The notes below the pieces were generated by a model. That model had not been told where the DNA came from. It saw nothing but the letters and a program-made list of their open reading frames with translations, and made no database searches. 64,000 bases of DNA, from the IMG/VR virus record IMGVR_UViG_3300013800_000001, positions 22,065 to 86,064 of that record. One strand, 5' to 3'. Source of the DNA: a virus (taxonomy: Duplodnaviria > Heunggongvirae > Uroviricota > Caudoviricetes). The position numbers and the translations under genes were made by a program. Shown here piece after piece: positions 7,471-54,500 of this stretch (its first letter is position 1; each line of letters begins with the position of its first letter).

Positions 7471-7474
7471 AGTT

Positions 7475-8179: not shown

Positions 8180-8207
8180 ATGGGTATAGTTTCTTTATCT
8201 ATGCCTA

Positions 8208-8237: not shown

Positions 8238-8239
8238 AG

Positions 8240-10088: not shown

Positions 10089-10334
10089 ATGACATACGCA
10101 AAAGCCAAAGAAATGGCCTCAAATGCAGGATACAAACAACCAAAAGAAGTAGCTGAAGCATATGACCATTCTGAGTTCTGGAGATACTTCAGCAAAGCAA
10201 TGAAATGGCCAGAATATCTCCCAGGAACAGATATACCCACATGGTACGTCAAATACCTATCACATAAAGGCCACATACTCACCGGCAACTCTCCTGAAAG
10301 CTGGTTCAAATGGGTAGGATTAACTCAAAACTAA
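10089..10334 (+). CDS. Hypothetical protein (81 aa)
   Basis: ORF track. Confidence 0.5.
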   Translation: MTYAKAKEMASNAGYKQPKEVAEAYDHSEFWRYFSKAMKWPEYLPGTDIPTWYVKYLSHKGHILTGNSPESWFKWVGLTQN

Positions 10335-10345
10335 AATAATAAACT

Positions 10346-11038
10346 ATGGGACTACGATTCGACCACGGGAAGGTAATAATCATTAACATCACAACAAGAT
10401 ATCAATATGAATATCACTGCAAAGAATTAGAAAAACTAGGATACAGATGGCGTAGCAAAGAAAAAATGACAGAAAAGCCACTCTGCGAAGTCAGCCTTCC
10501 AATGGCTTTCTACATAGAAGCAAACAAAGAAGTTGGCTATGGAAGCAGACAATTAACAGAAAATTCTCTATTCAAGCCATTTACGATAGCTCAATTAAAA
10601 AACACTTATCATTCAACAAATAATATTATGCCTCCAAAAACAACACCAAAAGCTTCTGATATCAAAGTAGGAGCCACATTTATCAATCAATATGGACATC
10701 AGGTCACTGTTACAGAGATTTATTACACCCATAAAGAAGTAAGTGGATTCAAATTCAATGACGGTGAAACAGCTGGCCCAGGATGGACATTTAGAAACAT
10801 GAAATTCATCAAAAACCCAGGTCCTACACCAAAAGCACCCAAAGCAAACTTCCTCCTCAAATATGACCTTGATGAAGATCCTATCGAAGAATACGAGACA
10901 ATGAAGCAAGTTGATGACCGCATCAAATATCTTGTAGAAAACGTTCAAGAACTCAAAAAAGAATCAATTGTTATCTATGAAATAAAGAAAAAGCATAGAG
11001 TGACCATCTCTACCCGTATCACCAAAAGAAACGCTTAA
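10346..11038 (+). CDS. Hypothetical protein (230 aa)
   Basis: ORF track. The antisense ORFs inside it are rejected. Confidence 0.55.
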   Translation: MGLRFDHGKVIIINITTRYQYEYHCKELEKLGYRWRSKEKMTEKPLCEVSLPMAFYIEANKEVGYGSRQLTENSLFKPFTIAQLKNTYHSTNNIMPPKTTPKASDIKVGATFINQYGHQVTVTEIYYTHKEVSGFKFNDGETAGPGWTFRNMKFIKNPGPTPKAPKANFLLKYDLDEDPIEEYETMKQVDDRIKYLVENVQELKKESIVIYEIKKKHRVTISTRITKRNA

Positions 11039-11071
11039 ATCAAACAAATAATTAATATAATATATAAATTT

Positions 11072-11545
11072 ATGTCAAAAGCTTACAAAAACCTCACAAA
11101 GCTCCAAGTAGAAACAGCTGAACAAGTGCTTCGAGAAGCTCTCCGAAAAAGAACCAAAGAAATCGCAGACAAAAAAGAAGCAGAAGCTCGAAAGAAGCAC
11201 GAAGCGGCAATGAAGGCAATCATCACAAAAGTAAAGAAATTTACTGATGAAATCATGAAAGATAAGAAGAAAATCGAAAAAGATCCAAACTTCTACCTAA
11301 TACTCGGATCAAATGAATACAGCGATCCAATTCGTGACCTAGACCCAACAAGAGGAGCGCTCACATCAGAAAAACTACTTAATGTCAGAAAGAAAGACGG
11401 ACATCACTACAATGAGTCTGTTTTCACTCCAGACACAACCAAAGAAGAAGAAGTCATCAGAAACTTCATTCTTGAGCTCAAATTGGGTACAGCAGTCATG
11501 GAAGATATCAAGCAAATCATGAAAGTAATCGAATCAATCAAGTAA
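11072..11545 (+). CDS. Hypothetical Lys/Glu-rich coiled-coil protein (157 aa)
   Basis: ORF track. Confidence 0.55.
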   Translation: MSKAYKNLTKLQVETAEQVLREALRKRTKEIADKKEAEARKKHEAAMKAIITKVKKFTDEIMKDKKKIEKDPNFYLILGSNEYSDPIRDLDPTRGALTSEKLLNVRKKDGHHYNESVFTPDTTKEEEVIRNFILELKLGTAVMEDIKQIMKVIESIK

Positions 11546-11555
11546 TTATCCTTTA

Positions 11556-11590
11556 ACAGAGGGCTAGACTAACCTCTAGCCCTCTTAAAT
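11556..11590 (+). terminator. Stem-loop, possible weak terminator
   Basis: GAGGGCTAG-actaacct-CTAGCCCTC hairpin. The downstream tract is AT-rich rather than a clean T-run. Confidence 0.3.
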
Positions 11591-11598
11591 ATAAATAT

Positions 11599-11880
11599 AT
11601 GTTCACAATATTACTCACAGGATTAATCCTCCCTATCATAGTAGGAATAATCATCGGACTAACAATCATAGAAATAATAAAATTTGTTTTCAACAGAAAA
11701 AGTGAAGAAAACTCTTATTTCATAGAAATACAAACAGAAGACAAAAAATACAAAAACTGGATATCAATACACAGAACAACTGCATATGAAGCTATAGAAG
11801 CAGCCGAGAAGAAAGTAAGAGAAAAAACATACAACGAAGGAAACGGCCGATGGTTTATCAGTAAAATAACAAAACTATAA
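11599..11880 (+). CDS. Small membrane protein (N-terminal TM helix)
   Basis: ORF track. Hydrophobic N-terminus ILPIIVGIIIGLTIIEII. Confidence 0.5.
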   Translation: MFTILLTGLILPIIVGIIIGLTIIEIIKFVFNRKSEENSYFIEIQTEDKKYKNWISIHRTTAYEAIEAAEKKVREKTYNEGNGRWFISKITKL

Positions 11881-12123
11881 ATAAATATATGAAATGGCTA
11901 CAAAACTACCTTTGCTACTGGGATCTAAGACATAGACTCACAAAAATAGGCTTAGGAAAAGGTTATATATGTTTCCATTGCTACAAAAAGTTCCCTTACA
12001 AACATTAATCTAAAACTATGTTAATCGAAATAGGACCAAATCTATCAGTAGCACTACAAGGATTCGCTTTTGCTTTAGGATTCGTAGGATTCTGGTGGGC
12101 AATAACTCGCAATTAATAAATAT

Positions 12124-12651
12124 ATGTCAACACGATGCCAATTAGGAATATATCCTAAACAAGGAACACCTATCAAAGATTTTGAAACACTCATTTACAG
12201 ACACTCAGATGGTTATCCATCAGGAGTTTTGCCAGATATTATGCCATTTCTCGTTCACTTCAAAACAAACAGAGGACTTGATGACATTGAATACGCCACA
12301 GCCAGATTAATCCAATACATGACCAATCAAAGCGATGAATCACACCGAGAATGGCAAAAACAATGGATGAAAGAAAATCCTCAAGAAATAAAGAAAAACT
12401 ACGAGAAAGCATTAGAAATGAAAAAAACACAAAAGTTCGGAAATGTCACAGGATTTGGAATATCTAATGCATTACATGGAGATATTGAATATTTCTACTA
12501 TATAAGCCAAGAGACAGTTATCGTATACACAATGGATATATGGCATGGAATAAATAACCCAGCATCAAACATAAATCAAATTGGAACAATACCAATCACG
12601 CTTGACTGGGAAACAGATCCAACATACCTAAAATTAATTCAAAATCATTAA
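12124..12651 (+). CDS. Hypothetical protein (175 aa)
   Basis: ORF track. Confidence 0.55.
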   Translation: MSTRCQLGIYPKQGTPIKDFETLIYRHSDGYPSGVLPDIMPFLVHFKTNRGLDDIEYATARLIQYMTNQSDESHREWQKQWMKENPQEIKKNYEKALEMKKTQKFGNVTGFGISNALHGDIEYFYYISQETVIVYTMDIWHGINNPASNINQIGTIPITLDWETDPTYLKLIQNH

Positions 12652-12656
12652 AATAT

Positions 12657-13028
12657 ATGAAAAATAAGAATGGAGTTCACTACATCTCAAAAAATATCTG
12701 CAAGAAAATAGTCAGAAAACTAGGAAAAAACAGCCCAGATACGACATTTATATTCAATTTATCCAACAATGCAAAAGCAAAAATCGTATATTGCGGAGAT
12801 GTTTCAAATCCAGTATCAGTCTTCAATGAAGCATTTATCCCAGCATATACAGTCAATGACCTACTCATGCCAGACGGAATTTTTGCTCGCTTAATGGACA
12901 AAAAGCTAGAAGATCCAGAAGTTAAGTTCGTCGAAAAGACGTCTACACTCTGCAACATCTTCACCACACTCTGGCACGAAGCCTCATGGAAAGAAGCTGA
13001 AGCCTACCTTAATTCTCTAGTCTCATAA
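12657..13028 (+). CDS. Hypothetical protein (123 aa)
   Basis: ORF track. Confidence 0.5.
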   Translation: MKNKNGVHYISKNICKKIVRKLGKNSPDTTFIFNLSNNAKAKIVYCGDVSNPVSVFNEAFIPAYTVNDLLMPDGIFARLMDKKLEDPEVKFVEKTSTLCNIFTTLWHEASWKEAEAYLNSLVS

Positions 13029-13036
13029 ACATATAT

Positions 13037-13282
13037 ATGAAAGCAATAGTAACAGCAAAATTTGAATTTGATGTAACAGACTGGTACGAAGATGAAAAAC
13101 TAACACTAAAACAAAAAGAAAAACAACTAAAAGAAGATTTATCAGACTTTTCAGTATTCATGCCATTAGCTGAATACAACACACTAAAAGATGTAAATGT
13201 AGATGTAATCCATAAAGTAAAATGTATATGCATAGATAATAAACTAGACAGAAAATGCATAGCTAAAATACATAACTGGTAA
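13037..13282 (+). CDS. Hypothetical protein (81 aa)
   Basis: ORF track. Confidence 0.5.
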   Translation: MKAIVTAKFEFDVTDWYEDEKLTLKQKEKQLKEDLSDFSVFMPLAEYNTLKDVNVDVIHKVKCICIDNKLDRKCIAKIHNW

Positions 13283-13286
13283 TTCT

Positions 13287-13721
13287 ATGAACCAAACAGA
13301 AATCAACAAAAAAACTGAAGATGAAGTAATTAGCCTAAATCTCGCTCAGGAGCTTAAAACACTCGGAGTGACACAAATATCCTACTTTGGATGGATAAAG
13401 ACGTCAGAGGGCAAAATAATGCTCGTAGACGTACGCTACGCAACACCAAAGAATAGCCAAGAGGAATTACTTTGTGCTGCTTACACCAACAAAGACATTG
13501 ATGTATTCCTATCAAAATATCAAGACCAAAGAGAAACATACTACGAAGAAACAGAAATATTCTCAGGATATGAACAAGAAAATGGTTTCTTTTGTGGCAT
13601 GTACAGCCATGGAATTGATAGATTCGCCACAATGGAATACGCAGACAAACCAGGTGATGCTAAAGCTAAAATGCTCATCGAATTAATCAAAAAAGGCCAT
13701 ATTAAAGTAAAAGAACTATAA
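13287..13721 (+). CDS. Hypothetical protein (144 aa)
   Basis: ORF track. Confidence 0.55.
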   Translation: MNQTEINKKTEDEVISLNLAQELKTLGVTQISYFGWIKTSEGKIMLVDVRYATPKNSQEELLCAAYTNKDIDVFLSKYQDQRETYYEETEIFSGYEQENGFFCGMYSHGIDRFATMEYADKPGDAKAKMLIELIKKGHIKVKEL

Positions 13722-15581: not shown

Positions 15582-16880
15582 ATGCCAAAAACAACAACAA
15601 CCAAAGAAGAAGCAGCAAAAGAAGTAGAATACAATGGAATCAAAGTAGAAAAAGGTGACGGACTAAGCCAATTTATCCCAAAATCAGCAAAAAAATACAT
15701 CGACCACGGTAATATTCTAAAAACTCTAGCAATCGGTATTCGTGATGATATGGCAGTGCTACTCATCGGAGAATCAGGAACAGGAAAAACATCAGCTATT
15801 CGTCACATGGCTCAAGAAACCAACAACGGACTCCGTCGTATCAACCTCAACGGTGGCACAACAGCTGATGAACTCGTAGGACGAATGCTTATCAATGATC
15901 AAGGAACATACTGGGTTGATGGAGTACTCACAGAAGCCATGCGATCAGGAGATTGGATTGTTTTTGATGAAATTAACGCAGCACTCCCAGAAGTTCTCTT
16001 TGTGCTTCAATCAGTCATGGATGATGACGGATATCTAGTTCTCACAGAAAAAGATGATAAAGAAATTGTCCACAAACACAAAAACTTCCGCATCTTTGCT
16101 ACCTGTAACCCACCAGAATATGCCGGTACAAAGGAAATGAACAAAGCATTGCTCTCTCGCTTCGGTATCTGTATCAATGCAGAATTCCCTAAGAAAGAAG
16201 TAGAGCTAGAAATCATTGAGCATCACCTAGGAAAATCAGTAGCCGAATCAGAAATGGCTATCAAACTCGTAGATATGGCTAACGAAACACGTACTCAGAA
16301 GCAAAATGGAAAAGCTGAATACGAAATCAACACACGAGATATCTTGAACATCCTAAAGCTCGCACAAACAATGGAACCAATCCAGGCGGTACAAATGGGA
16401 TTTAGCAACAAATTAGAGCCTACAGACTCAAAAGCATTCCAAACATATGCAACTCTTCATGTACCAAGTTCAAGACAGAAAGCAAAAGCTACACGAACAG
16501 CTATGACAGACACAAATGCTTTTGAAATTGGAAAGAAATATATCTTAGATGCTGATATGCAAAAATGCTACTTTGGCCTAGAAAAGTATACAATCTCTGA
16601 ATTTGACGCCCTAAAAAAGAAAGGACTACTAGAAATTGTTACAGAAAAAGACCAAGACAACGGAATCAAAGGAGATGAGTTCAAAGTAACAGCAACATTC
16701 TACGAGAATGAAGTCCAAGCATCAGAAAAAGACCTAGATATGACACAAGCTGGACAGAAAACAGGAAGTGCAATCACCATCACAGCTGGTGCAAACAAAG
16801 GAAAGAAAGCCATCATAATCCATAACCAAGGCATTCAGGATGCAACAGAACTCCTAGCAACAATCTTCCAAATCAGCTAA
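15582..16880 (+). CDS. MoxR/CbbQ-like AAA_5 (dynein-related) ATPase
   Basis: Walker A LLIGESGTGKTS. Walker B WIVFDEINAA. The CNPPE...LLSRF arrangement is typical of the AAA_5 MoxR subfamily. Confidence 0.8.
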   Translation: MPKTTTTKEEAAKEVEYNGIKVEKGDGLSQFIPKSAKKYIDHGNILKTLAIGIRDDMAVLLIGESGTGKTSAIRHMAQETNNGLRRINLNGGTTADELVGRMLINDQGTYWVDGVLTEAMRSGDWIVFDEINAALPEVLFVLQSVMDDDGYLVLTEKDDKEIVHKHKNFRIFATCNPPEYAGTKEMNKALLSRFGICINAEFPKKEVELEIIEHHLGKSVAESEMAIKLVDMANETRTQKQNGKAEYEINTRDILNILKLAQTMEPIQAVQMGFSNKLEPTDSKAFQTYATLHVPSSRQKAKATRTAMTDTNAFEIGKKYILDADMQKCYFGLEKYTISEFDALKKKGLLEIVTEKDQDNGIKGDEFKVTATFYENEVQASEKDLDMTQAGQKTGSAITITAGANKGKKAIIIHNQGIQDATELLATIFQIS

Positions 16881-16892
16881 CAAAAACTCATT

Positions 16893-18419
16893 ATGAAACT
16901 CGTAGAATTCCAAAAAATAGCAGAGATGCTAGCAAAACAGCATAAAATCACAATTCACGAGGGAGAAAAATGGGCAGCTAACATTGAGCAAAGAAAGATA
17001 TTCTATGTAAAAAACGATATCTATAACCTGCCTGAGGATCATATCCTCGGGCTCTTGCTCCATGAGATTGCTCACATCCACTACACAACCGATGTTAAAT
17101 TACCAGAAGAAAACAAAGAATTGCTGCACACAGCCCTAAATATGATCGAAGATATCGCTATCGAACATATAATCGGAGGAGATTATCCTAATGCAGCAGA
17201 AATCCTTAATTCAACAAAAGATGAAGTATTGGACACTCTCGTAAGATTGCTCCCAAAATTAGAACGATCAGTCCATGAAAAAGCCCTTCTCTATGCCGCT
17301 GCTAGATTTGAAGGAAGAGGATACAAAAACGGAATCGAAGATTATGAAGTACTTGGAAACAAAGTAGCAGACATCATGATTCCTAAAAAAGAAGAAATCT
17401 ACAACAGAGAAGAAACAGAAAGTCTCATGCCAATTGTAGACGAAATAGCCAAACTTCTCGTAAAAGAAGCAGGAGAGCCAACAGACAAGGAAAAAGAAGA
17501 AATGATGGGAGAAGAACAGCATGGACAAGCCAATCCGAACGGAAAGGAAAGTCATCAAAAAAAAGCCTGTCACGGAAATCCTGTAAAACAAGAGATAATC
17601 GATGAATTAAAAGCAGGAAATGGCTGGATAAAAGGCATAGCACAAGAACAAAGAATAGAATTCGTCGATGAAATAGCAGAACAATCAGAAAAAATAGGCA
17701 AAGAAATCAGAAATGTCCTAAAAAGAAACAATGCTATGGAATTTGGCGGAAGATATAGAACTGGAAAGCTAAAAACAAAAAGAATCGTTAAAATAGTTGC
17801 ACAAAAAGACAGAAATCCTTTCTCAAGAAGAATTGTCAAAAGCAACCAAAGCTATGCCTTTTCAGTTGTTATCGACGTTTCGGGTTCAATGTTCAATGAC
17901 TACACCGCACCTGGTGAATACGACAAAGGAAGCTATGCCCTATCTAGTATGTATATGCTAGGAGAAGCCCTTAAAAAAGCCTCAATTCAAAGAAGTCTCA
18001 TCATATTCGGAGAAATAGCAGTCAAAATAAATGACATGAACAAAAAAGAAGTAAGATGGGAAGAAATCTGTGATCAAAAGAAACATGATCAAGCAGAATA
18101 TGGAGGAACAGACATCGCCCAAGGAATGGCTAAAGGCATACTAGAACTAGAAAAAACCAGAGCAGAAAGGAAAATACTCATAGTTCTCACAGACGGAAGT
18201 AGCCATAAACCAGACATGGAAAGAGTCCATGAAATAGGAAAAAAAGCAGGAATAGAACAACTAGGAATAACAATATCTCAAAACGACCTACCAATAGAAA
18301 TCATGAATGAAGTCTTCGGAGAAGAAAAAAACACAATCATCAAAGATGTTCAAGACACAAAACTAATTGGTAAGGCATTTATTGATATCCTTAAAAGATC
18401 TGTAAAGAAATCAGTATGA
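16893..18419 (+). CDS. von Willebrand factor A (VWA) domain protein with an N-terminal HExxH motif, partner of the MoxR-like ATPase
   Basis: MIDAS-like VIDVSGSM...TDGS. HEIAH motif near the N-terminus. Classic MoxR-VWA adjacency. Confidence 0.7.
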   Translation: MKLVEFQKIAEMLAKQHKITIHEGEKWAANIEQRKIFYVKNDIYNLPEDHILGLLLHEIAHIHYTTDVKLPEENKELLHTALNMIEDIAIEHIIGGDYPNAAEILNSTKDEVLDTLVRLLPKLERSVHEKALLYAAARFEGRGYKNGIEDYEVLGNKVADIMIPKKEEIYNREETESLMPIVDEIAKLLVKEAGEPTDKEKEEMMGEEQHGQANPNGKESHQKKACHGNPVKQEIIDELKAGNGWIKGIAQEQRIEFVDEIAEQSEKIGKEIRNVLKRNNAMEFGGRYRTGKLKTKRIVKIVAQKDRNPFSRRIVKSNQSYAFSVVIDVSGSMFNDYTAPGEYDKGSYALSSMYMLGEALKKASIQRSLIIFGEIAVKINDMNKKEVRWEEICDQKKHDQAEYGGTDIAQGMAKGILELEKTRAERKILIVLTDGSSHKPDMERVHEIGKKAGIEQLGITISQNDLPIEIMNEVFGEEKNTIIKDVQDTKLIGKAFIDILKRSVKKSV

Positions 18420-23252: not shown

Positions 23253-23282
23253 ATGTTACATGATTATTTTCTATTTGTCAAG
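23253..23282 (-). promoter_or_regulatory. Variant conserved promoter (TTGACA-N17-TAACAT) driving the minus-strand replication operon
   Basis: Reverse complement is cTTGACAaatagaaaataatcatgTAACAT, about 150 nt upstream of the initiator gene. Confidence 0.55.
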
Positions 23283-23695: not shown

Positions 23696-23725
23696 CTTGA
23701 CAAATGGAAAATCATCATATACACT
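23696..23725 (+). promoter_or_regulatory. Conserved promoter (TTGACA-N17-TACACT), first of a tandem pair
   Basis: cTTGACAaatggaaaatcatcataTACACT. Confidence 0.6.
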
Positions 23726-23742: not shown

Positions 23743-23772
23743 CTTGACAAATAGAAAATATGGGTGTACGAT
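23743..23772 (+). promoter_or_regulatory. Variant conserved promoter (TTGACA-N17-TACGAT), second of the tandem pair
   Basis: cTTGACAaatagaaaatatgggtgTACGAT, about 30 nt upstream of the sigma region-4 gene. Confidence 0.55.
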
Positions 23773-29485: not shown

Positions 29486-29515
29486 CTTGACAAATGGAAA
29501 ATCATCATGTACACT
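29486..29515 (+). promoter_or_regulatory. Conserved promoter (TTGACA-N17-TACACT) upstream of the LemA gene
   Basis: cTTGACAaatggaaaatcatcatgTACACT. Confidence 0.65.
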
Positions 29516-29546: not shown

Positions 29547-30134
29547 ATGAAAATATTAGGAATGGCTTTGGGAGGCATTTTTTCCCTTGTATTTGTAGTA
29601 ACAGCGATAGGAATACTTTGGTATATAGGAGCATATAATTCTTTGGTAAGCTCATATGAAAATGCAGATACAGCATATGCTGCTATTGAGACCCAGTATC
29701 AAAGACGTTTTGATCTAGTACCTAATCTTGCAACCGCCACTAAGGCTTTTCTACAGCAAGAAAAAGATGTGCTTGGAGAAATTGCAAGAGCTCGCACTCA
29801 ATATGCTGGTGCTAAGAGTGGTTCAGCAGACCAGATTGAGGCTATGGGAAGTTATAGCTCAGCTTTGGCCCGTCTGATGGTTATTGTAGAGAATTATCCA
29901 GAGCTTAAATCAGATCAGACTGTGCGTGACTTGATGACAGAATTAGCTGGAACTGAAAATAGAATCAATGTAGCACGAGATAGATATAATGAGGCTGTAC
30001 GTTCATACAACGTATCTATAAAGTCATTCCCTAAGAATATGATTGCTAAGAGATTAGGGTTTGAAGAGAAGCTTATGTTTGTATCAGAAAAGGGTGCTGA
30101 AAAAAGCGTTAATATCAATCTAGATACAAAATAA
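29547..30134 (+). CDS. LemA family membrane protein
   Basis: N-terminal TM helix and LemA-like core (YQRRFDLVPNL...ENYPELKSDQ...RDRYNEAV). Confidence 0.7.
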   Translation: MKILGMALGGIFSLVFVVTAIGILWYIGAYNSLVSSYENADTAYAAIETQYQRRFDLVPNLATATKAFLQQEKDVLGEIARARTQYAGAKSGSADQIEAMGSYSSALARLMVIVENYPELKSDQTVRDLMTELAGTENRINVARDRYNEAVRSYNVSIKSFPKNMIAKRLGFEEKLMFVSEKGAEKSVNINLDTK

Positions 30135-30135
30135 T

Positions 30136-30687
30136 ATGAATACCAGAATAACAATAATATCTATTCTGTGTGTCTCTATAATATTTCTTATTATAGCTTC
30201 AGTTGGTAACTCAACCCCAACTGTACCAGAGCACATGAAAATGGATGATAGACCAAAGTCTACAGATATCCTAGGGCAGAATATTCCAGACGTGGTTGGA
30301 TATGTGAATGATGAAGCAAAACTTATAGATGAAATCCAAGAAGTACAAATAAAGCATAAAATACAGGTGTTTTCAGAAGAATCAAGCAAAGGAGAAATGG
30401 CTGTAGTTACCGTTAATTCACTGAATGGTCTCTCGGTCGAAGAGTTTGCCATCAGGCTTGCAGAGAAGTGGCAAGTTGGGAAAGAAGGTAAAGACGATGG
30501 CATTATCATTATCATAGCCAAAGCAGAACGAAAGGTTCGCATTGAAGTTGGAAGAGGAACAAATATAACTGATGCTCAAGCAAAAGGGGTTCTTGATGAT
30601 GTAATGATACCGAAGCTTAAAGAAGGAGATTGGGCTGGAGCAGTAGACTCTGGTGTAGACGCACTAATTAATCTAGCTAGTGAATAA
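30136..30687 (+). CDS. TPM (TLP18.3/Psb32/MOLO-1) domain protein with an N-terminal TM segment
   Basis: TPM-like core (EMAVVTVNSLNG...IIIIIAKAERKVRIEVGRG...AQAKGVLDD). LemA-TPM adjacency is a known bacterial gene pair. Confidence 0.65.
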   Translation: MNTRITIISILCVSIIFLIIASVGNSTPTVPEHMKMDDRPKSTDILGQNIPDVVGYVNDEAKLIDEIQEVQIKHKIQVFSEESSKGEMAVVTVNSLNGLSVEEFAIRLAEKWQVGKEGKDDGIIIIIAKAERKVRIEVGRGTNITDAQAKGVLDDVMIPKLKEGDWAGAVDSGVDALINLASE

Positions 30688-31126
30688 ATATATGGAATAT
30701 AAATTTGGAGAAATATATACAGATAAGCCGATGGTAGATGATACTGTCCAGCTACAAAAAGGCCTTCCGCTTCCAGTGGTTCTTTGTGAAGAAACAGGAG
30801 TGAGAATGCTGAACATTGATGCAGATGAAATCCAAAGAGGAGATCTTCAATTCATAAAAAGCCTTGGTTTGACTATCTCTAACCCAGATACAGACAGGCC
30901 AATTGCACTCGGAGTTGATTTTCTAGAAGACTCATGGGGTGAGCGTATCAACGATTATTTGAACAACGAAGATGATGATGACGATAGTGACTTCTTCGGT
31001 GGAGATGACGATGATGATGACGATAGCTTCCTTGGCGGTTTCGGAAGTGGAGGCTTCAGTGGTGACTCATTTGGCGGATTTGGTGGCGGGTTATTCAGTG
31101 GAGGTGGCGCTAGCGGGGATTTCTAG
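30680..31126 (+). CDS. Asp/Gly-rich low-complexity protein (148 aa)
   Basis: ORF track. C-terminal DDDDDDSFLGGFGSGGFSG...GGGASGDF resembles the tails of YgcG/TPM partners. Confidence 0.4.
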   Translation: MNKYMEYKFGEIYTDKPMVDDTVQLQKGLPLPVVLCEETGVRMLNIDADEIQRGDLQFIKSLGLTISNPDTDRPIALGVDFLEDSWGERINDYLNNEDDDDDSDFFGGDDDDDDDSFLGGFGSGGFSGDSFGGFGGGLFSGGGASGDF

Positions 31127-31127
31127 T

Positions 31128-31337
31128 ATGTCGAAGAATATAAAAGACTTGTATGAACACAGTAGACTTGATTTCGTTTCTGAGGATGCACAACATAGAG
31201 TTTGCTGGAATCAGAAAGAAAAGAAATGCTGTGATTGTAAACCTCATGACAATTGCCTTCTTCCAGAAGAGGATGCAGAATCACGTAGTTTTTTAGAATG
31301 GCTTGAAATAGAGAGATTGAGAAAAGATAATAAATAA
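31128..31337 (+). CDS. Small Cys-rich protein (70 aa). It is the distal in-frame part of track ORF 30972-31337.
   Basis: ATG at 31128 avoids overlap with the previous gene. CCDCKPHDNC cluster. Confidence 0.3.
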   Translation: MSKNIKDLYEHSRLDFVSEDAQHRVCWNQKEKKCCDCKPHDNCLLPEEDAESRSFLEWLEIERLRKDNK

Positions 31338-31349
31338 TATGAAAATCAT

Positions 31350-32666
31350 ATGTTAACATTACCAATTATTTTAGCAATATGCGGTGGAGGAATAGTAGTC
31401 CTCATCTGGGCTTTCCTAGCCACATATAAAGTTGTCGGTACAAACGAGGCTCACGTTATAGTGTTTATGGGTCGTGGACGTAAGATTAAGTCGCCTGTAG
31501 CCAATGATGGTGTAGAGGGGAAGACTTCTTACTTCTACATTCCATTCTTGATGAAACGGTATATCATGCCTCTCACCAACGTGAAGCTTGATATCAACGA
31601 AATTCATCTAAATGATGTAGAAATGGCACCATTTAAGTGTGATGTAGTGACCTGGCTTCACATCGAAGACCCTGTCAAGGCAGCAGAACGTCTTGATTTT
31701 AGCGAAGAAAACGTATTTATTTCACTTCATCAAGATTTGTCAGCCATTGTTCAGGCCATTGCTCGTGCGTCAGCCATGAAACAAGAAATCCTTGATATCA
31801 TGCGTGATCGTGCCACTTTTGCTCAAGGTGTAAGTATAGAAGTAGATGGCGTTCTAAAGTCATGGGGAGTGCAGCTCGTAAACCTCGAAATTAACGAAAT
31901 TCGGGACCAAGACGACTCTCAGATCATAAAAGGGTACGAAAGTATTCGTAAAGCGACTATTGCGTCTAAAGCCCGTATTGAAGTTGCTACGCGTAATCGT
32001 GAAGCGATTCAAGCTGAACAGGAAAACCTGCAGTTGGCTGAGATTTCAAAGGCAGAAGCTGAAAAGGCTTTTATTACAAGCCAAATTCTTCGAGATAAGT
32101 CTATTGGTATCAGTACTCAGGAGAAAGATCAAGATATTGCTGTTGCTGAAGCTATCACAAATGCCAAGAAAGTGGCTGCTTTGAAGGTGACGACAGTTGG
32201 AGAAGCTAATGTTACCAAGGAGGCTGCTATTGTTGAGGCTGAAGGACGTGGAGAAGCAATCCGTATTCAGGGAGAAAAAGAGGCTAATGTTGTTGCCCTG
32301 AAGGGTAAGGCCGAAGCTGATGTTGTCTCTCTTACTGGTAAAGCCGAGGGAGAAGCAATTGAAGCTAAGGGTCTTGCTGAAGCTCTTGCAAAAGATAAGA
32401 TGGCAGATGCTCTTGTTAAATTCAATGAGGCAGCCACTGGTATTGAAAAGATCAAAGCATGGGTTGAAGTGCAGAAGTCATTTGCTGAAGCATACGGCCA
32501 GATGGCTAAAAATGCTGATATCAAGGTTGTTACTAGCGGTGAAGGCGGAAATATCCTCGGATTACCGATGAACGCTCAAACTGGAGGTGACTTAGGCCAA
32601 ATGATTGAGGCAATGGGTGGGTTTGGAAAGATTAAAGACATGTTCACAGGAACAAAGTCTGAATAA
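31350..32666 (+). CDS. SPFH/band-7 flotillin-like protein
   Basis: N-terminal TM helix, band-7 domain, then a long Ala/Glu/Lys-rich coiled coil with AEA/EAK repeats typical of flotillins. Confidence 0.75.
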   Translation: MLTLPIILAICGGGIVVLIWAFLATYKVVGTNEAHVIVFMGRGRKIKSPVANDGVEGKTSYFYIPFLMKRYIMPLTNVKLDINEIHLNDVEMAPFKCDVVTWLHIEDPVKAAERLDFSEENVFISLHQDLSAIVQAIARASAMKQEILDIMRDRATFAQGVSIEVDGVLKSWGVQLVNLEINEIRDQDDSQIIKGYESIRKATIASKARIEVATRNREAIQAEQENLQLAEISKAEAEKAFITSQILRDKSIGISTQEKDQDIAVAEAITNAKKVAALKVTTVGEANVTKEAAIVEAEGRGEAIRIQGEKEANVVALKGKAEADVVSLTGKAEGEAIEAKGLAEALAKDKMADALVKFNEAATGIEKIKAWVEVQKSFAEAYGQMAKNADIKVVTSGEGGNILGLPMNAQTGGDLGQMIEAMGGFGKIKDMFTGTKSE

Positions 32667-32681
32667 CAACAGATGTCTGTA

Positions 32682-32710
32682 TAAAGCCCACCATTCGGTG
32701 GGTTTTATAT
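32682..32710 (+). terminator. Rho-independent terminator
   Basis: AAGCCCACC-attc-GGTGGGTT then TTATATT. Confidence 0.65.
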
Positions 32711-32750
32711 TGGGCTTCTGGTAAGCTAAATTCATATTAAAAAATTCATT

Positions 32751-32963
32751 ATGAAGATAACATTTCAAGCAGATCCGGAGGATCCAGTGTACCCAATTAT
32801 GCACGGCAGGACTCCTGCTGCTAAAGAATTTAACAAAAGAATGAAAAAGTTTTGGAAGGACGGTGTCTTTGACAAAACAAACTTTTCAGAGTTCATCACT
32901 ACTTCTCTTATGGAGATGTTGATAGATGACTATAATTTAAGGCATAAAAAAGCCAATAAATAA
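32751..32963 (+). CDS. Hypothetical protein (70 aa)
   Basis: ORF track. Confidence 0.4.
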   Translation: MKITFQADPEDPVYPIMHGRTPAAKEFNKRMKKFWKDGVFDKTNFSEFITTSLMEMLIDDYNLRHKKANK

Positions 32964-32973
32964 CTTCAAAACC

Positions 32974-33210
32974 ATGAAGCCTAAAATGAAGCCGAAGCCA
33001 AAGAAGGATAATGTTTTCGGAACAACTAAGAAACTTAGCCCTAAGACTAAGAAGAAGATTGCTCCACTTGAATCATTTTGGAAGAAAAAGCTAAAGAAAG
33101 CCATGTTATCTGACAACTCAGATGTTTGGGTAGCTGGTTTTATTACAGGGTCATTCCTGGTGTTATCTATTGCCTTTGCCGTATTTGAATCAATAATAAG
33201 GAGTCGTTGA
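32974..33210 (+). CDS. Small basic protein with a C-terminal TM helix (78 aa)
   Basis: ORF track. Confidence 0.45.
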   Translation: MKPKMKPKPKKDNVFGTTKKLSPKTKKKIAPLESFWKKKLKKAMLSDNSDVWVAGFITGSFLVLSIAFAVFESIIRSR

Positions 33211-33236
33211 CTCGTGAACTGAATACTTAAAGACGT

Positions 33237-33533
33237 ATGATAGAAGAATTAACAGGGATTAAATTAACTCATGCTACAGCTGGTTTTCTAGGAGGTTTGA
33301 CAGCTTACCTCGTAAATCCACACATGCATTGGAGAGACGGAGCAGCATTAATGATTATTGGAGGAGTATCATCATATTATCTGATACCAGCCATTTCTGA
33401 ATATTTTACACTTTCTATAGCTACAGCTAGCTTTATTGGCTACGCTGTTGGGCTCATAGCTCAGGGTTTTATACTGAGAGCTAAAGAAAAGATTATAGAA
33501 AAACTCGTATCACGAGTAGAATCGCAGATTTAA
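33237..33533 (+). CDS. Small multi-TM membrane protein (holin-like topology)
   Basis: ORF track. Two or three hydrophobic segments. Confidence 0.45.
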   Translation: MIEELTGIKLTHATAGFLGGLTAYLVNPHMHWRDGAALMIIGGVSSYYLIPAISEYFTLSIATASFIGYAVGLIAQGFILRAKEKIIEKLVSRVESQI

Positions 33534-33586
33534 CGGTCTGACTTCTAGGCTTAAACGCTTAGAGTTAGTTCATTAAACCGGTTATA

Positions 33587-33652
33587 TGGGGGGATAGTTG
33601 GAAAACTCTTGACTCTTGTCACGAGTCGTAGGTTCGATCCCTACTCCCTCAA
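33587..33652 (+). ncRNA. Plus-strand tRNA-like element without a variable loop or a proper D-loop (anticodon-like loop TTGTCAC, GTC)
   Basis: Perfect T-arm GTAGG-TTCGATC-CCTAC. Stem-loop GACTC-TTGTCAC-GAGTC. Acceptor TGGGGGG/TCCCTCA with two G-U pairs. Only about 66 nt. Confidence 0.35.
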
Positions 33653-33677
33653 CCTAACCAACAACATAGAAAAGGAG

Positions 33678-33863
33678 ATGAGAATTGTGGAATGCCCTCG
33701 TTGTAGCGCAACCATGCTCTCATCTCAACACATAGAGACAGAGCAACTTGGTGCGGTAACTATCCGTACTGTTACTCATAAGGCAGAGTGTCCTAAATGC
33801 TCAGCCATGATAAAGACTATTCTGCCAACCGTAACTCCCATTTTAAGGATAAAGGGGAAATAA
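33678..33863 (+). CDS. Zinc-ribbon protein (CPRC...CPKC, 62 aa). Start moved to the Met with an AAAGGAG ribosome-binding site.
   Basis: Internal ATG of track ORF 33609-33863. A Shine-Dalgarno sequence lies 6 nt upstream. Confidence 0.45.
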   Translation: MRIVECPRCSATMLSSQHIETEQLGAVTIRTVTHKAECPKCSAMIKTILPTVTPILRIKGK

Positions 33864-33865
33864 AA

Positions 33866-34045
33866 ATGCTGATCTGCCCTAAGTGTGACCACCCAATGCA
33901 ACTGCGTGGAGGTATCGATGTCATCTGCGACGAATACGAGTGCGACTGTGGCCTGGAAATCAAGGCCCCCAAGAACACCGTCAAAGTCGGCGATCATCGT
34001 CAATTCAACCTCCCCCTGGTACAGGGTGCGAAAATCAACCCATGA
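33866..34045 (+). CDS. Zinc-ribbon protein paralogue (CPKC...CDC, 59 aa) in a GC-rich island
   Basis: Internal ATG of track ORF 33797-34045 with a ribosome-binding site AAAGGGGAAATAAAA. Local GC is about 55% against about 38% around it. Confidence 0.45.
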   Translation: MLICPKCDHPMQLRGGIDVICDEYECDCGLEIKAPKNTVKVGDHRQFNLPLVQGAKINP

Positions 34046-34079
34046 GCATCTCGAAAGGAGGTGATCCTTTTCTACGGCA

Positions 34080-34110
34080 GGGCGAGCCGTTAAATCGCCC
34101 CTTTTTCTTA
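34080..34110 (+). terminator. Rho-independent terminator
   Basis: GGGCGA-gccgttaaa-TCGCCC then CTTTTTCTT. Confidence 0.6.
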
Positions 34111-34195
34111 CTTGACCGTTTTGCTCCATGATGAGAAAATTAAGACACTAAAAGTACTTTGAAAACTGAGTGTCTAGTCATGTTATGTCACACAT

Positions 34196-34612
34196 ATGTC
34201 ACGTATTTCAAAAGTCAAGTTAATGTCATTATTAAAGGATAATATTAGAAGCATGATTGCTAATCACGAGCAACATCGTCTAGGTAAAGTCCTTACCATC
34301 ATTGATGCTTCCATCAGTGATCCAGAACAGAGAAAAGGTCTCAAAGACCTAGTGAAAGAAGCATTTTGGGCAGAAGTTTACTTCTCTCAACATCTTCCAA
34401 ACCTAATAGAGCAATTCGTAAATAGATTAGGTATCTATGATATATACCAATCTAGTAAACAAGAAAGAGATTTCAAACTGGGGTCACTTCGTGTATCAGA
34501 TGAAGATAGACTAAATCCGTCTTACATAGAGGATTTCTTCCCTGAACTACATATTCAAGAAGATCCAGGAGTTACATCAGGTGAGGCAAACTCACCGAGT
34601 AGCAAAAACTAA
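34196..34612 (+). CDS. Hypothetical protein (138 aa)
   Basis: ORF track. Confidence 0.5.
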   Translation: MSRISKVKLMSLLKDNIRSMIANHEQHRLGKVLTIIDASISDPEQRKGLKDLVKEAFWAEVYFSQHLPNLIEQFVNRLGIYDIYQSSKQERDFKLGSLRVSDEDRLNPSYIEDFFPELHIQEDPGVTSGEANSPSSKN

Positions 34613-34837
34613 TCTAATCAGTAGATTAGGCACTCAGCTTTAAGAGCTATTTTTATACAAGAAAGACATTTTTAAGAGTTAGTTAGAAGTTAAGACCCGT
34701 ATCACGGTATGGGCAGTAATATTTAACATCAACCTCTGAAACACAATGCATTTCACAAAAGGTTATTACATAGGTTAAGAAGAAAAAGGGCTAAGTTTAG
34801 GCTGTTTTTCGAACAAGGATTAGGATGCTTTGATTTA

Positions 34838-35056
34838 ATGGTGTTCTTTGCAATATTATCAGTGATTGTCATGTTTCTTACCCTTTTATTTCCAGAAGAA
34901 GCTATGGCAGACCCTAAAAGTCGTTTCGAGCTCTATCAACAAGAACATCCTATTGAGAGGAGGAAATATCAGCCTCCTACACCAAAAACTGAGGAAAGCA
35001 TATCCATTGATGAATATCATAAAAAGTTAGAAGAAAAACGCTTAAACAAGCAATAA
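34838..35056 (+). CDS. Small protein with an N-terminal TM helix (72 aa)
   Basis: ORF track. It lies directly upstream of the M23 peptidase gene. Confidence 0.45.
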   Translation: MVFFAILSVIVMFLTLLFPEEAMADPKSRFELYQQEHPIERRKYQPPTPKTEESISIDEYHKKLEEKRLNKQ

Positions 35057-35064
35057 AGTAGATT

Positions 35065-35736
35065 ATGTACCCACTGAATAAATGGCTTTTATACCCTAGA
35101 GGATATAGATTCGGACAACCGACTTTTTATAGTGACTTTCACCTTGGTTTGGATGTAGTATGTCCGTCTGGAACTGAAATTATTGCATGGGATGACTTAG
35201 TGGTTTCTAATGCTCTGGTTGGTGCACAAGGAGGAAATACTATATGGGTGAAATCAGATGGAAAGCTGTTTCGTCTGATGCATCTTTCAAAACCTGGTAA
35301 AACAGGAACATATAAAAAAGGACAGGTCATAGGATATACTGGTAACACTGGTGCAAGCACAGCTCCGCATTTGCACATAGATATATCTAAGAATGGCAAT
35401 CTAGAGCTTAATAATCACGCTAATTTCATAGACCCAGAGGAATACTTTAAACAACTCAATGACAATAATATGGAACTCACAAAAGATCAGAAGAATGAAT
35501 TAGCAAAGTTAGGCTTTGACTTTGGAAACAATCTTAACTCATCAGAGCTTGATAAGCTGATTAAGAAAGCTGTTGATCTTCAAGAAGAGCCTGATCCAGT
35601 TTGTCCACCTGCCGAAAACTGTGATATATACAAGCAGCAGATAATTGAGAAAGATGCCGAAATAGCTGGATTGAGACCAAAGGCAGACGTAGGGAATCGT
35701 TTTATCGAAGTATCTAAAATGGCAAATAGCCTTTAG
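35065..35736 (+). CDS. Peptidase M23 (LytM-type) family protein
   Basis: HLGLDV ... GNTG...APHLHID motifs. Confidence 0.75.
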   Translation: MYPLNKWLLYPRGYRFGQPTFYSDFHLGLDVVCPSGTEIIAWDDLVVSNALVGAQGGNTIWVKSDGKLFRLMHLSKPGKTGTYKKGQVIGYTGNTGASTAPHLHIDISKNGNLELNNHANFIDPEEYFKQLNDNNMELTKDQKNELAKLGFDFGNNLNSSELDKLIKKAVDLQEEPDPVCPPAENCDIYKQQIIEKDAEIAGLRPKADVGNRFIEVSKMANSL

Positions 35737-36054: not shown

Positions 36055-36084
36055 CTTGACAAATGGAAAACTAGGGTGTACACT
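36055..36084 (+). promoter_or_regulatory. Conserved promoter (TTGACA-N17-TACACT)
   Basis: cTTGACAaatggaaaactagggtgTACACT. Confidence 0.6.
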
Positions 36085-42718: not shown

Positions 42719-42748
42719 CTTGACAAATGGAAAATCATCGTGTACACT
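42719..42748 (+). promoter_or_regulatory. Conserved promoter (TTGACA-N17-TACACT)
   Basis: cTTGACAaatggaaaatcatcgtgTACACT. Confidence 0.65.
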
Positions 42749-49736: not shown

Positions 49737-49766
49737 CTTGACAAAAGCCAACTTAAAAAATACACT
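49737..49766 (+). promoter_or_regulatory. Conserved promoter with a degenerate spacer (TTGACA-N17-TACACT)
   Basis: cTTGACAaaagccaacttaaaaaaTACACT, about 10 nt upstream of the deformylase gene. Confidence 0.55.
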
Positions 49767-51079: not shown

Positions 51080-51586
51080 ATGAGGATTGATAGATCATGT
51101 AAGATTTGCGGTAGCGTTTTTGAAGCCATCAAAACAACCCAATTCTTTTGCTCTCGAAAGTGCTTTAAAAGAGACTATTATATTCGAACAAAGGCAATTA
51201 CGGTAAAGAAAAAGCAGAATCCAAGCTTCCCACAGAAAAAATGCGGATTTTGCCTGGAGATTTCTCAGCTTGATTTTGATCCTATGACACATCCAAGCCT
51301 GTATACAGGATGGTGTTGCCCGTTCTGCGGTACTCACAATAAGATAGTCTTGCAGTATCAAGGAAAGCCTGGATCAAGACAAAGTATAATAGATATATAT
51401 CTGCAATCCGAGTCAAACTTTCCGAACAATACTCTTGTACAGACTCATATAACAGAATACAAAACATACCATATACCGATTCATAATCCGGCAGAAGGTA
51501 ATGATTCTATACTGGTGTTAACGTGTGAGCTAATGAATATCCTAGAGATTCAGAAAGGAAACAGAAAAAAGATAGTGTTTTCTTAA
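51080..51586 (+). CDS. Zinc-ribbon-containing hypothetical protein (168 aa)
   Basis: CKICGSV...CSRKC and CCPFCG clusters. Confidence 0.5.
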   Translation: MRIDRSCKICGSVFEAIKTTQFFCSRKCFKRDYYIRTKAITVKKKQNPSFPQKKCGFCLEISQLDFDPMTHPSLYTGWCCPFCGTHNKIVLQYQGKPGSRQSIIDIYLQSESNFPNNTLVQTHITEYKTYHIPIHNPAEGNDSILVLTCELMNILEIQKGNRKKIVFS

Positions 51587-54500
51587 TACCACCCGTTCTC
51601 ATCATGGAATCTCAAAGCCATTGATGGTGAGCCATAGCGCTCTTTAATGTATCTCAAACCAGCGGCGATCTGAACATTAGGATCGTCGCTTTTTTGTGCT
51701 CCATATCCTCCCCATGTACTATCTAAGAATTGGAATAAACCGAAAGCTGTAGAGTTAGGATTTTTTACATTGTGGCGGAAAGAAGATTCTCTGTTTACAA
51801 GTTCAAGAAGAGCGTTAACCTCATTTTGTCCAAAGTAGTCTGCCCCAGACTGGGCTACTAGTATCTTGTTTCTTTCTATGTCAGAATTTCCAGTTGTCTG
51901 AACAGCAGCTGGAGCTGGCTTGATAGATTTAGCCACTGGCTCCATAGCATCAGCTATATTAGCGTAATCTCTAGGTCCTTTATATCCTTTAATAGGCACT
52001 GGGCGTGGCTCAAGTCGTAATGTACTTGGACCTGTCTTTTTTACAGGTTTAACTGGAGCAGGCTTATTCTCAACCTTTGGCTGAACTGGCTTAGGCTCCT
52101 GTGGTTTTGGTTTCGGCTTATTAAATGTTAATTCAGTTGTCTTTACCTCTGGTTTTGGCGAGTTTTGGTTCACAAAAACTGTTTGCTTTGGCTTAATAAA
52201 GCTACTAAGAGTGTCACTGACTTTATTTCCTATAGAATGGCCAATAGATGAGGCTTTCTGCTTAAACCAGTCTCCAAATCCTCCGGCACCATCATGATAT
52301 CCAGGCCCTCCTCCTCCATCGTTTTTACTTTGAGATAGAATAGCATCGTATTTCTTAATTTTATCAAGAATATCTTTGAAGTTACCCTGAATCATTTCTG
52401 GTGTTTGCCATGATGGGGCTGGGTTCTCTGGATCTGGATTGTCGATTTCTTGCTGTAGTCTCTCTATTTTAGCCTTTAATTCAGGAAGAACTACCTTTGC
52501 TTCTTCAACAGCTTGCATCTCCTTGCTCTTCTGCAAAGCAGACTTAACATCAGCTACCATAGCTTCTTTTTCAAGCTTCTCGAATATACTGAAAGGAATA
52601 GAAAGCTTCTTAGCCTTCGGGTTATTTTCAGTTAATCTCTTGTTCATGTATTGCAATAGACCTGGATTTTCTTTTCCAGCTCCAATAAACAAACGCTTGA
52701 TATCACGTACTGAAGCAGCTCCAGTCATTGGAAGATCTGATGCAACACCAGCTAGAAGATTTTCTCCCTGAGTAAGGTTTCCGATCATGTTGTCTTCTTG
52801 GTACCATGGGGTTACTCGCATTCCATTTGCAAGTTCTGGTGTTTCCAGTCCCAATGCTGCTTTTTCACTATCAGTCATTCCTCCACCTTCTTCGGTAGGA
52901 TTATCTTTCAATTGCTGTCTTCTTTCGCCGTAAGCCTTCATTTCTGCATCTCTATCTCCAGCAGAACGAGCATTAACAATATTCTTATTCTGCTTTATTT
53001 CACGTCCAGCAGCATTAACCTCACTGGCAAAGTAATTGTTCCAGAAATCATCCCCCCATGGATGAATAGTAGAGGTAAATTTAGCAAGAGTAGGGTTATT
53101 CTTGTATTTAGGTCCAAACATGTGGGTGAATACTTCATCCATAGTCTTGGCATTGTAAAAAGCTGGGAGATTTTCTTTGTCTTTAAGACCTTCTTCAATG
53201 CTACGGTAAAAGCTATTTGACTTAACAGCAGGCATTTCTATAGGAGCATCATTAGCTTTTAAGCCAACTCCAAGCATCTCTGAAGAACGCTTTTCCATTT
53301 CTCTTATAACATTCTCTTTTACATCTTTGATGATGTTACCAGGGACACCTTTTGCTGCAAGATCGAACTGAACCATCTTCTCTACATCTTGGATAGCCAT
53401 TTTGTGAGATTTGACGTTATCTTGCATATATCCACCCTTCGCATTTTCAATAGCAGAAACAGCTTCTGGGATGAAACTATCAGTTAATCTTGATATTTCG
53501 TCCAATTCTTTAGAAGAAACAACTCTCTGAGCCTTTGTATTACTATTCTTTTTGAGTGAGGGGAGCTCAACCTCTGCAGTAGCTGTAATTCTTTCTGTAA
53601 GGGGATCAACAACTGGAGGAGTAATAGTTTCCATCACTTTCTCCTGAACTGCCTGAGGAGCACTGATTTCAGCTGTTTTTTGAGCTGTAGGGCTCTCAAA
53701 CGGCAAAGTGTTATCAGATGTACTTTTAACTGGTAAAACTGCCTCCTGAGGCATAATATGCTCTTCTACACCACTTACAGGTGATTTCTTCAGCTTGCTA
53801 ACCAAAGGCATGTCTAAAACAGCATTTCCAGCTCCTTGAGCCTGTAATGCTCCACTTTCGAGGTATGTCTTAGTGAATTGAAGTTTTAGCTTTGTAGCAA
53901 GACTGGCTTCACCGCTATTTACAGCTTCTACTAGGATATTTAGACCGTCTCGCATGGTTAGATTATCCTTCTGCTTGAATATAGCCTGAGCCTGAGAATC
54001 CTGAAGGACAATTCCAAACTTTTCAAGGAATCCTTGTTTCAGGGTCTCTGGACTAGAAGTATCAATAACATCTTCAATATCCTTAACCAATGATCTTGTT
54101 GTCTGTTGAGGTACAGCAATCTTTTCTGTCTTCGGTGTTTCTTTTACAACAACCTTTGGTATATATTCAGATGCTGGATGAACAACATTCTTTCTCATCT
54201 GAGCAATTGCCTCAGACTTTTGTTTAGCACCCATAGCACTATTAACCTTAGCAATATGCATAGAAATGGGGCTTTTTTCTCCTTGATTTCTCATTCTGTC
54301 TCCTAAGTTCTTGCTATACTCCCAGTTTGAGTCTTTGACATTCAAAGGAATAAAAGGATTCTTGCTTTCTAATGTCTCCATTGTGGCTCTAGGGTCAAGG
54401 TTTGCCACCAAAACGCTAATATCATCCTTTTTCATAGCAGTAGCAAGCTGATCTTTGTGAAGATCAATTGGACGCATACCTTTCTTTCCGCCTGTTTCTT

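Follow-up and report, generated by a model that had tools for sequence, protein, structure and literature searches.

A phage operon encoding LemA, TPM-domain and flotillin proteins probably joins two separable membrane cassettes

We analysed a 64,000-nucleotide stretch of the uncultured Caudoviricetes record IMGVR_UViG_3300013800_000001 (positions 22,065 to 86,064 of that record; hereafter the window), which carries on its + strand, at 29547–32666, five tightly packed open reading frames (ORFs) encoding a LemA-family protein, a TPM-domain protein, an Asp/Gly-rich protein (ORF3), a small Cys-rich protein (ORF4) and a flotillin-type SPFH protein. We conclude, with a probability that we put at about 0.85, that this operon consists of two phage membrane cassettes with separate histories, a LemA–TPM–ORF3 trio and a flotillin, which were joined in the sublineage of the window phage. 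ORF3, which an earlier note made from the sequence alone had described as an Asp/Gly-rich low-complexity ORF, is a conserved, obligate third subunit of the LemA–TPM unit rather than filler, and the trio is apparently a new, phage-restricted version of a bacterial operon that is known but uncharacterised. Few bacterial membrane-protein families without an assigned function are as widespread as LemA and TPM; a compact, obligate phage trio marks the parts that must cooperate and offers a simpler system to reconstitute.

The separation into two units emerges from approximately 45 metagenomic loci anchored on either flotillin or ORF3, whose neighbourhoods we inspected and scored by tblastn, with the absence of a partner cassette assessed within ~6–7 kb either side of the anchor gene. 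Wherever a locus included upstream sequence, LemA and TPM preceded ORF3 (the window and the loci that we number L001, L009, L011, L013, L014, L016, L018, L020/L032, L021, L022 and L069). Flotillin, on the other hand, stood without the trio in ~18 loci that extend 2.5 kb or more upstream, among them L004 (75% identity), L024 (69%), L026, L027, L028 and L006, and the trio occurred without flotillin in at least six (L011, L013, L014, L018, L021 and L022). The two are adjacent only in about five phages: the window phage, L069, L009, L020/L032 and L001. The earlier proposal of a single membrane module thus gives way to two units that are independently distributed among related phages, and the independent distribution of flotillin shows it to be unnecessary for the LemA–TPM unit.

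Comparison of individual relatives sharpens this picture. The nearest, L069, is 91% identical in the flanking SNF2 helicase, 86% in LemA and 89% in flotillin, and in the second-closest by SNF2 (L011, 75%) the place of ORF4 and flotillin behind the trio is taken by two other ORFs, one coiled-coil and one CxxC-rich. In L001 the trio proteins are 49, 41 and 36% identical to those of the window, against 70% for the flanking SNF2 helicase and 72% for flotillin, a disparity that shows an apparent swap of the trio relative to its flanks. Across lineages with an SNF2 identity of only 29–45%, the trio remains intact and keeps its invariant residues. Neither the trio nor a LemA–flotillin adjacency was present in any of three further records of the phage collection that we inspected (Schiekvirus EfV12-phi1, Vibrio phage Pontus and a mislabelled ‘Acinetobacter phage’). 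L001 also has a 48-nt perfect-stem hairpin that separates ORF3, and with it the trio, from flotillin (7879–7926; −42.1 kcal/mol, z = −9.3); it has no U-tract and may represent a terminator, a site of processing or the scar of a recombination event.

Profile searches upheld the earlier domain calls for LemA, TPM and flotillin (PF04011, PF04536 and PF01145). The LemA-family protein (195 aa; 29547–30134, +) matched PF04011 at E = 6.6e-47 (159.5 bits, cut-off 26.2) over 147 of the 149 profile positions and the Thermotoga LemA crystal structure (PDB 2ETD_A) at 3.1e-41 over residues 31–187 (phmmer), with a single N-terminal transmembrane (TM) helix at residues 3–21 placed ahead of the 2ETD-type helical-bundle domain. 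It has thousands of metagenomic homologues, the closest named ones in metagenome-assembled genomes (MAGs). LemA-like genes were found in 40 phage records, in which other phage LemA proteins (for example, that of Schiekvirus, which lacks a TPM gene) are 32–45% identical. The match to the MamQ model NF040966 was partial (2e-28, 99 bits, below the 250-bit cut-off). MamQ was, as of 2016, the sole LemA-family protein tied to a known process, forming mobile patches in the cytoplasmic membrane and, as proposed, arranging proteins there as a hub ahead of magnetosome invagination (PMC4902198); it shares with the phage protein the LemA fold and one N-terminal TM helix, but has an extra N-terminal region and an insert specific to magnetotactic bacteria, and the phage LemA has no magnetosome context. 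More recently, a mycobacterial LemA-like domain has been modelled as a membrane-proximal scaffold on the cytoplasmic face (bioRxiv 10.64898/2026.07.15.738315).

The TPM-domain protein (183 aa; 30136–30687, +) matched PF04536 at E = 2.6e-34 (118.4 bits, cut-off 22.1) as well as the solved TPM domains PDB 7TBR, 2KW7 and 5ANP, and begins with a predicted signal-anchor (hydrophobic segment, residues 5–23). In BLASTP it matched the ectodomain of bacterial YgcG (1e-16) and gave no match to DUF477-type TPM. The C-terminal TM segments and Gly tail are absent from the phage protein, which stops directly after the domain at residue 183. That LemA and TPM form a widespread bacterial pair was borne out by the canonical LemA–YgcG–DUF477 operon that we observed in L067 (CAKLQH020000003.1); this 240-kb record is filed as ‘Acinetobacter phage MD-2021a’ but carries gltD and a prepilin gene and looks like a mislabelled bacterial chromosome. 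The phage and bacterial systems are alike in being three-gene units, in the order of LemA followed by an exported TPM protein and in possessing a tail that ends in GGGASxx[WF]. They differ in that the phage tail resides on ORF3, a soluble protein of its own that has a novel N-terminal domain (N-domain) and a poly-Asp patch, and in that the third phage gene is not a cytoplasmic TPM/DUF477 protein.

ORF3 (144 aa; 30692–31126, +, from an ATG at 30692, with an alternative GTG start at 30680) is predicted to be soluble, has a net charge of −26 and belongs to a family of ~361 clusters of 125–165 aa without any Pfam domain. An exhaustive hidden Markov model search of 1.84e9 representatives recovered 57 relatives, ~45 of them with the N-domain and all of those small standalone proteins. 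The N-domain spans ~90 aa with invariant C32, M39, N41, D43, G50-D51-L52, K56, S63-N64-P65 and T67, and is followed by an invariant acidic patch, DDDDSxFF, and a Gly/Phe tail (GGFGGGxFxGGGAxxxF at the family's C terminus, GGGASGDF at the end of the window copy). Orthologues share the invariant residues at 36–73% identity, and those in the 46–65% range invariably sit immediately 3′ of LemA–TPM. Divergent members carry CxxC...CxxC, a pattern that suggests a zinc-ribbon origin for the N-domain; its AlphaFold2 model (predicted local distance difference test score, pLDDT, ~85) had no fold match in the PDB.

The tail links ORF3 to the bacterial system. Among long proteins matching the tail alone in the 1.84e9-protein search, five of six were TPM proteins, and the bacterial YgcG of L067 comprises a signal peptide, a TPM domain, TM segments and the tail GGGGGRFGGGGASGSW, which ends in GGGGASGSW. 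On the strength of the profile search and the common terminal motif, the ORF3 tail appears to be of YgcG type. Because this tail is absent from the phage TPM protein and present on ORF3, we interpret the phage trio as a re-partitioned LemA–YgcG system in which the tail is provided in trans. A search of 185,579 species genomes returned only three ORF3 matches, all on MAG contigs of Patescibacteria (the candidate phyla radiation, CPR) labelled Saccharibacteria, Colwellbacteria and ‘Patescibacteria group’ (L016, L017 and L018). We rejected L018 as a true host locus, as it contains only ORFans and an SNF2 helicase and therefore looks viral, while L016 and L017 are too short to be judged cellular or viral. 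ORF3 was thus found in no confirmed cellular context among either the species genomes or the 1.84e9 representatives, and its restriction to viral-looking or too-short contigs argues against recent acquisition of the trio from a host. Our literature search found no publication describing the trio, and no study of function for either the LemA–TPM operon or a phage flotillin.

The flotillin-type protein (438 aa; 31350–32666, +) matched PF01145 (Band_7/SPFH; E = 1e-13, 52.2 bits, cut-off 23.6) and, as its best NCBIfam model, FloT NF058507 (3e-22, 79.3 bits, far under the 700-bit equivalog cut-off), and had no match to PDB sequences in phmmer. Its AlphaFold monomer model (mean pLDDT 72.8) consists of a TM helix (residues 4–25), an SPFH domain (26–186), helices at 191–278 and 286–360, which correspond to the long A/E/K-rich coiled coil reported earlier, and a C-terminal region. 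In Foldseek the model aligned over its full length (~440 columns) only to the human flotillin-1/2 cage subunits 9L3G_A and 9BQ2_B (E ~2e-12, 18–21% identity), with stomatin, prohibitin and HflK/C aligning over ~280 columns. Homology predicts that the protein assembles into an oligomeric cage attached to the membrane at its cytoplasmic face. It resembles FloT/YqiK and flotillin-1/2 in its N-terminal anchor, SPFH domain and long Ala/Glu-rich helices, but is only ~20% identical to them, is encoded by a phage and has no neighbouring partner of the NfeD/YuaF/YqiJ type, no NfeD domain having been found in ORF4, in o70 or o78, in any neighbour or in relatives.

The earlier description of phage flotillins as unusual holds insofar as they are rare (56 of 50,697 phage records matched), but such genes are already recorded and annotated. 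The matching phages include Brevundimonas jumbo phages, in which the gene is annotated ‘flotillin’, and Xanthomonas and Vibrio Thalassavirus phages with SPFH genes, and these proteins are 25–31% identical to that of the window; among metagenomic homologues we counted 267 clusters at 50–100% identity. Vibrio phage Pontus (L068, Demerecviridae) encodes a 31% identical flotillin homologue, gp114, at 2992–4371, annotated as hypothetical and located within the phage's tRNA array. Further phage cases in the literature are Kayvirus MbpS, an SPFH gene between lysK and tgl (PMC7150955), and a lipoprotein of Schitoviridae (PMC13239085). The Kayvirus, Brevundimonas, Xanthomonas, Thalassavirus and Schiekvirus genes resemble those of the window in being accessory membrane proteins of large lytic phages, and the Thalassavirus flotillin lies, as in the window phage, in a tRNA-rich region. 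We also observed a solitary flotillin (6995–8302), 55% identical to the phage protein, on the 269-kb cellular contig L052 (SWBW01001556.1), whose cellular marks are RuvA, FemAB, a CDP-alcohol phosphatidyltransferase, BKACE and one tRNA (tRNA-Lys).

Between the trio and flotillin lies ORF4 (69 aa with five Cys; 31128–31337, +), with the Cys-rich motif HRVCWNQKExKCCDCxPHDxCLLPEED. L069 keeps the frame at 67% identity, with synonymous third-position changes in Cys, Asp and His codons and an in-frame 3-nt indel, which argues that ORF4 is a real gene; an automatic annotator's 47-aa frame at 31153–31296 was rejected in its favour. The ORFs that occupy this slot in other relatives are not homologous to ORF4, which is conserved in L069 only and is a lineage-specific small protein. 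Small Cys-rich or CxxC ORFs also recur directly 3′ of ORF3 in L011 (7834–8787), L009 (8594–8974) and L013 (8146–8316), with no detectable homology to each other or to the window ORF4.

The five genes form an operon under one of the phage's own promoters. Successive genes from LemA to flotillin are separated by 1, 4, 1 and 12 nt, and the unit is bracketed, as had been noted with boundaries at 29486 and 32682, by a promoter and a strong terminator. The promoter TTGACAAATGGAAAATCATCATGTACACT (29487–29515, +) has a −35 element TTGACA, a conserved 17-nt spacer and a −10 element TACACT. The intrinsic terminator (~32680–32711, +) comprises an A-tract, a GCCCACC-AUUC-GGUGGGU stem-loop and a U-tract; its hairpin, which the automated terminator scan overlooked, folds at −29.5 kcal/mol (z = −8.0), and none of 200 shuffled sequences was equally stable. 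Generic sigma-70-like promoter matches were not in excess in the window (17, with 16.8 expected from shuffled sequence), but the 29-nt motif is present in 11 near-identical copies, with 1.17 expected and no shuffle out of 100 reaching 11. Five copies lie on the − strand (91–119, 5290–5318, 5673–5701, 8208–8236 and 23253–23281) and six on the + strand (23697–23725, 23744–23772, 29487–29515, 36056–36084, 42720–42748 and 49738–49766). The operon's copy is identical to that at 5290–5318, which heads a tRNA array, and other copies head a divergent control region at 23.25–23.77 kb and the blocks starting at 36.06, 42.72 and 49.74 kb. The operon promoter is therefore of the phage's own standard class, which serves tRNA as well as replication and recombination genes. 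A TTGACA-17 site also occurs upstream of LemA in L032, L011 and L016, and we found no conserved promoter 5′ of flotillin in relatives. A 10/12 promoter-like site at 31303 of the window is not conserved and was not counted as part of the operon. The motif's spacer is nearly invariant, beyond what sigma-70 recognition requires, a hint that a regulator binds there or that a phage sigma factor is involved; Sigma70_r4 proteins are encoded by the relatives L004 and L009.

These observations bear on whether the five genes are simply neutral or near-neutral host-derived passengers (morons) with no role in the phage cycle, to which we assign the lowest probability of the alternatives considered here. 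The genes are patchily present among relatives, flotillin has its 55% identical cellular homologue and the closest named homologues of LemA are found in MAGs. Conversely, ORF3 has no confirmed cellular context, its three matches in the species genomes notwithstanding, the trio is retained with invariant residues despite 29–45% SNF2 identity, the divergence of ORF4 is biased towards synonymous changes, and a phage promoter and a terminator are dedicated to the operon. The earlier caveat that the module might prove a host-derived moron absent from relatives is thus correct in one respect, since each unit is missing at the site (within about 6–7 kb) in some close relatives, and is countered in the other by the distribution of ORF3.

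We tentatively propose that the operon organises or stabilises the host membrane before lysis, a reading to which we give a probability of roughly 0.35–0.4. Since its promoter class is common to the tRNA array and replication blocks, its expression should precede that of the lysis genes. LemA, TPM, ORF3 and flotillin, the main proteins, would then assemble at the host cytoplasmic membrane, with TPM on its outer face, LemA acting as a membrane-proximal hub through its four-helix-bundle scaffold domain, ORF3 serving as a cytoplasmic adaptor through its tail and flotillin corralling membrane patches. Their purpose would be to preserve the integrity and energisation of the membrane, both once the genome has entered and under envelope stress, up to the point of programmed lysis. 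The trio and flotillin would each work alone, and their joining would represent convenient co-expression rather than an obligate partnership.

[quoted passage not shown] The two systems share a TPM protein with a tail, a Cys-rich protein with a Gly tail and a Band-7 protein, and both are co-transcribed and membrane-acting. The phage operon differs in having LemA in the first position, held by PspA in B. subtilis, in that its SPFH protein is of the TM-anchored flotillin type whereas YdjI is soluble, and in that phage trios can do without an SPFH gene. The recurrence of a TPM protein, a Band-7 protein and perhaps a Gly-tailed Cys-rich protein in this phage-shock-protein (PSP) operon supports their cooperation in membrane maintenance and the view that large phages carry their own copy of membrane-maintenance families.

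A membrane location would equally suit a role in conflict with other phages or with host defences, either as superinfection exclusion that blocks the injection of rival DNA or as counter-defence that buffers pore-forming abortive-infection effectors. All parts of the operon are membrane-anchored or membrane-associated, an early/middle-type promoter appears to drive it, and it occupies a mosaic, variable slot whose presence/absence pattern and allele swaps are typical of accessory conflict genes. We nevertheless regard this explanation as unlikely: PADLOC yielded no match (LemA was marginal to PDC-S06, at E = 0.005 and 13 bits, and the other seven proteins gave nothing), the operon proteins are unlike known superinfection-exclusion (Sie) proteins, and flotillin is well conserved (50–90% identity across 267 clusters) in the manner of a scaffold or housekeeping protein rather than fast-evolving.

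The genes that follow the terminator raise a different alternative, in which flotillin, with or without the trio, forms microdomains for holin accumulation or for Sec-dependent lysin export and thereby tunes the timing of lysis. The region at 32751–35736 encodes, in order, a conserved 70-aa ORF (L009, L011 and L069 have it at 54–96% identity), a 78-aa ORF that is Lys-rich and has a single TM segment, a holin-like ORF of 98 aa with three hydrophobic segments (33237–33533; phrog_2359, 7.8e-9), a four-Cys 84-aa ORF and an M23 peptidase (35065–35736), and is probably a lysis block, without a copy of the 29-nt promoter. This proximity (holin-like ORF and peptidase within 2.4 kb downstream), the SLT-domain genes that follow in L009 and L011 and the similar role proposed for Kayvirus MbpS (PMC7150955) all favour a link to lysis. 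However, the strong terminator lies between the operon and the holin-like gene, and none of the 11 promoter copies precedes the holin block, their class driving the tRNA array and replication genes instead. Moreover, a holin-like gene beside flotillin is conserved only in the nearest relative, and in most flotillin-bearing relatives flotillin sits among replication and repair genes. We therefore consider a lysis-timing function quite unlikely.

That last setting invites the further suggestion that the proteins form a membrane scaffold tethering replication or recombination complexes or nascent virions. SNF2 helicase, ParB, an AAA+ ATPase, UvsX and SbcC are constant neighbours, and LemA matches PHROG 1383, labelled ‘virion structural protein’, at 1e-21. 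Yet this label is an untested annotation, none of the five proteins has a DNA-binding or virion domain, and close relatives with the same replication genes lack one or other cassette at the site, making such a scaffold very unlikely.

Several points weigh against the membrane-stabilising proposal and the two-cassette structure on which it builds. The five proteins and their flanks contain no PspA/Snf7 domain, so that, with no PspA/ESCRT-III component, the analogy with PSP systems is one of common domain vocabulary and not of whole-system homology. Published accounts of LemA topology are at odds (PMC3905215 versus bioRxiv 10.64898/2026.07.15.738315). The early/middle temporal class of the operon promoter is deduced from the genes that it heads, and the holin-like gene and M23 peptidase begin within 0.6–2.4 kb of the operon; that the operon lies outside the lysis cassette is argued from sequence, on the grounds that a terminator with z = −8 intervenes and that the promoter class differs. 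The equation of the ORF3 tail with that of YgcG concerns low-complexity sequence, and the two tails were not aligned in a BLASTP comparison of ORF3 with YgcG. Cassette absence has been scored over the few kilobases around each anchor gene given above, and no close relative was found in the cultured-phage collection; both phage and host are uncultured.

A more ambitious extension, which we regard as rather unlikely, would make the trio a phage-invented membrane-remodelling device in which ORF3 supplies a YgcG-type tail in trans to hijack or replace the host LemA/TPM system, in a large, tRNA-rich, uncultured lineage with Patescibacteria (CPR), or bacteria like them, as hosts without Shine–Dalgarno-dependent initiation. 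None of the 59 window ORFs of at least 120 aa has a Shine–Dalgarno core at −20 to −5, which points to Shine–Dalgarno-independent translation initiation alongside sigma-70-type promoters; the core was present in 6–15% of ORFs in L052, L009, L011, L013, L014, L018, L026 and L027. Many of the related contigs come from 0.1-µm filter fractions of groundwater. A Patescibacteria/CPR host is a lead and not a finding. If the trio were such a device, it would provide a first functional handle on the LemA–TPM system, and if the host were a member of the CPR, it would show how a phage manages the membranes of ultra-small bacteria.

The rest of the window agrees with the phage setting described earlier, with its tRNAs, replication genes and downstream holin-like and M23 genes. 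It belongs to a large phage encoding a primase-helicase, a DnaD-like loader, ParB, AAA+ ATPases, an SNF2 helicase, UvsX and SbcC, whose backbone proteins show no more than 35% identity to those of any cultured phage, and the module had no DNA-level match among the 50,697 phage records. A 26-tRNA array at 134–5261 (− strand), with the promoter motif copy 5290–5318 at its head, covers most amino acids. Adjacent ORFs at 15582–18419, a 432-aa CobS-like AAA+ protein (phrog_249, 2.9e-51) and a 508-aa CobT-like protein (phrog_17276, 1.2e-7), form an AAA+/vWA pair. The − strand at 51583–59991 holds a 1877-aa ORF and then a 923-aa ORF in which some segments are peptidase/endolysin-like (phrog_2307, phrog_5182); the pair probably encodes a tail (or tape-measure) protein together with a tail lysin. 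Finally, the flotillin-bearing relative L006 encodes, at 10308–13329, a QueE-like radical SAM protein, a QueD-like PTPS and a GTP cyclohydrolase I–HNH fusion, a 7-deazaguanine/queuosine-type set that suggests DNA modification in that lineage.

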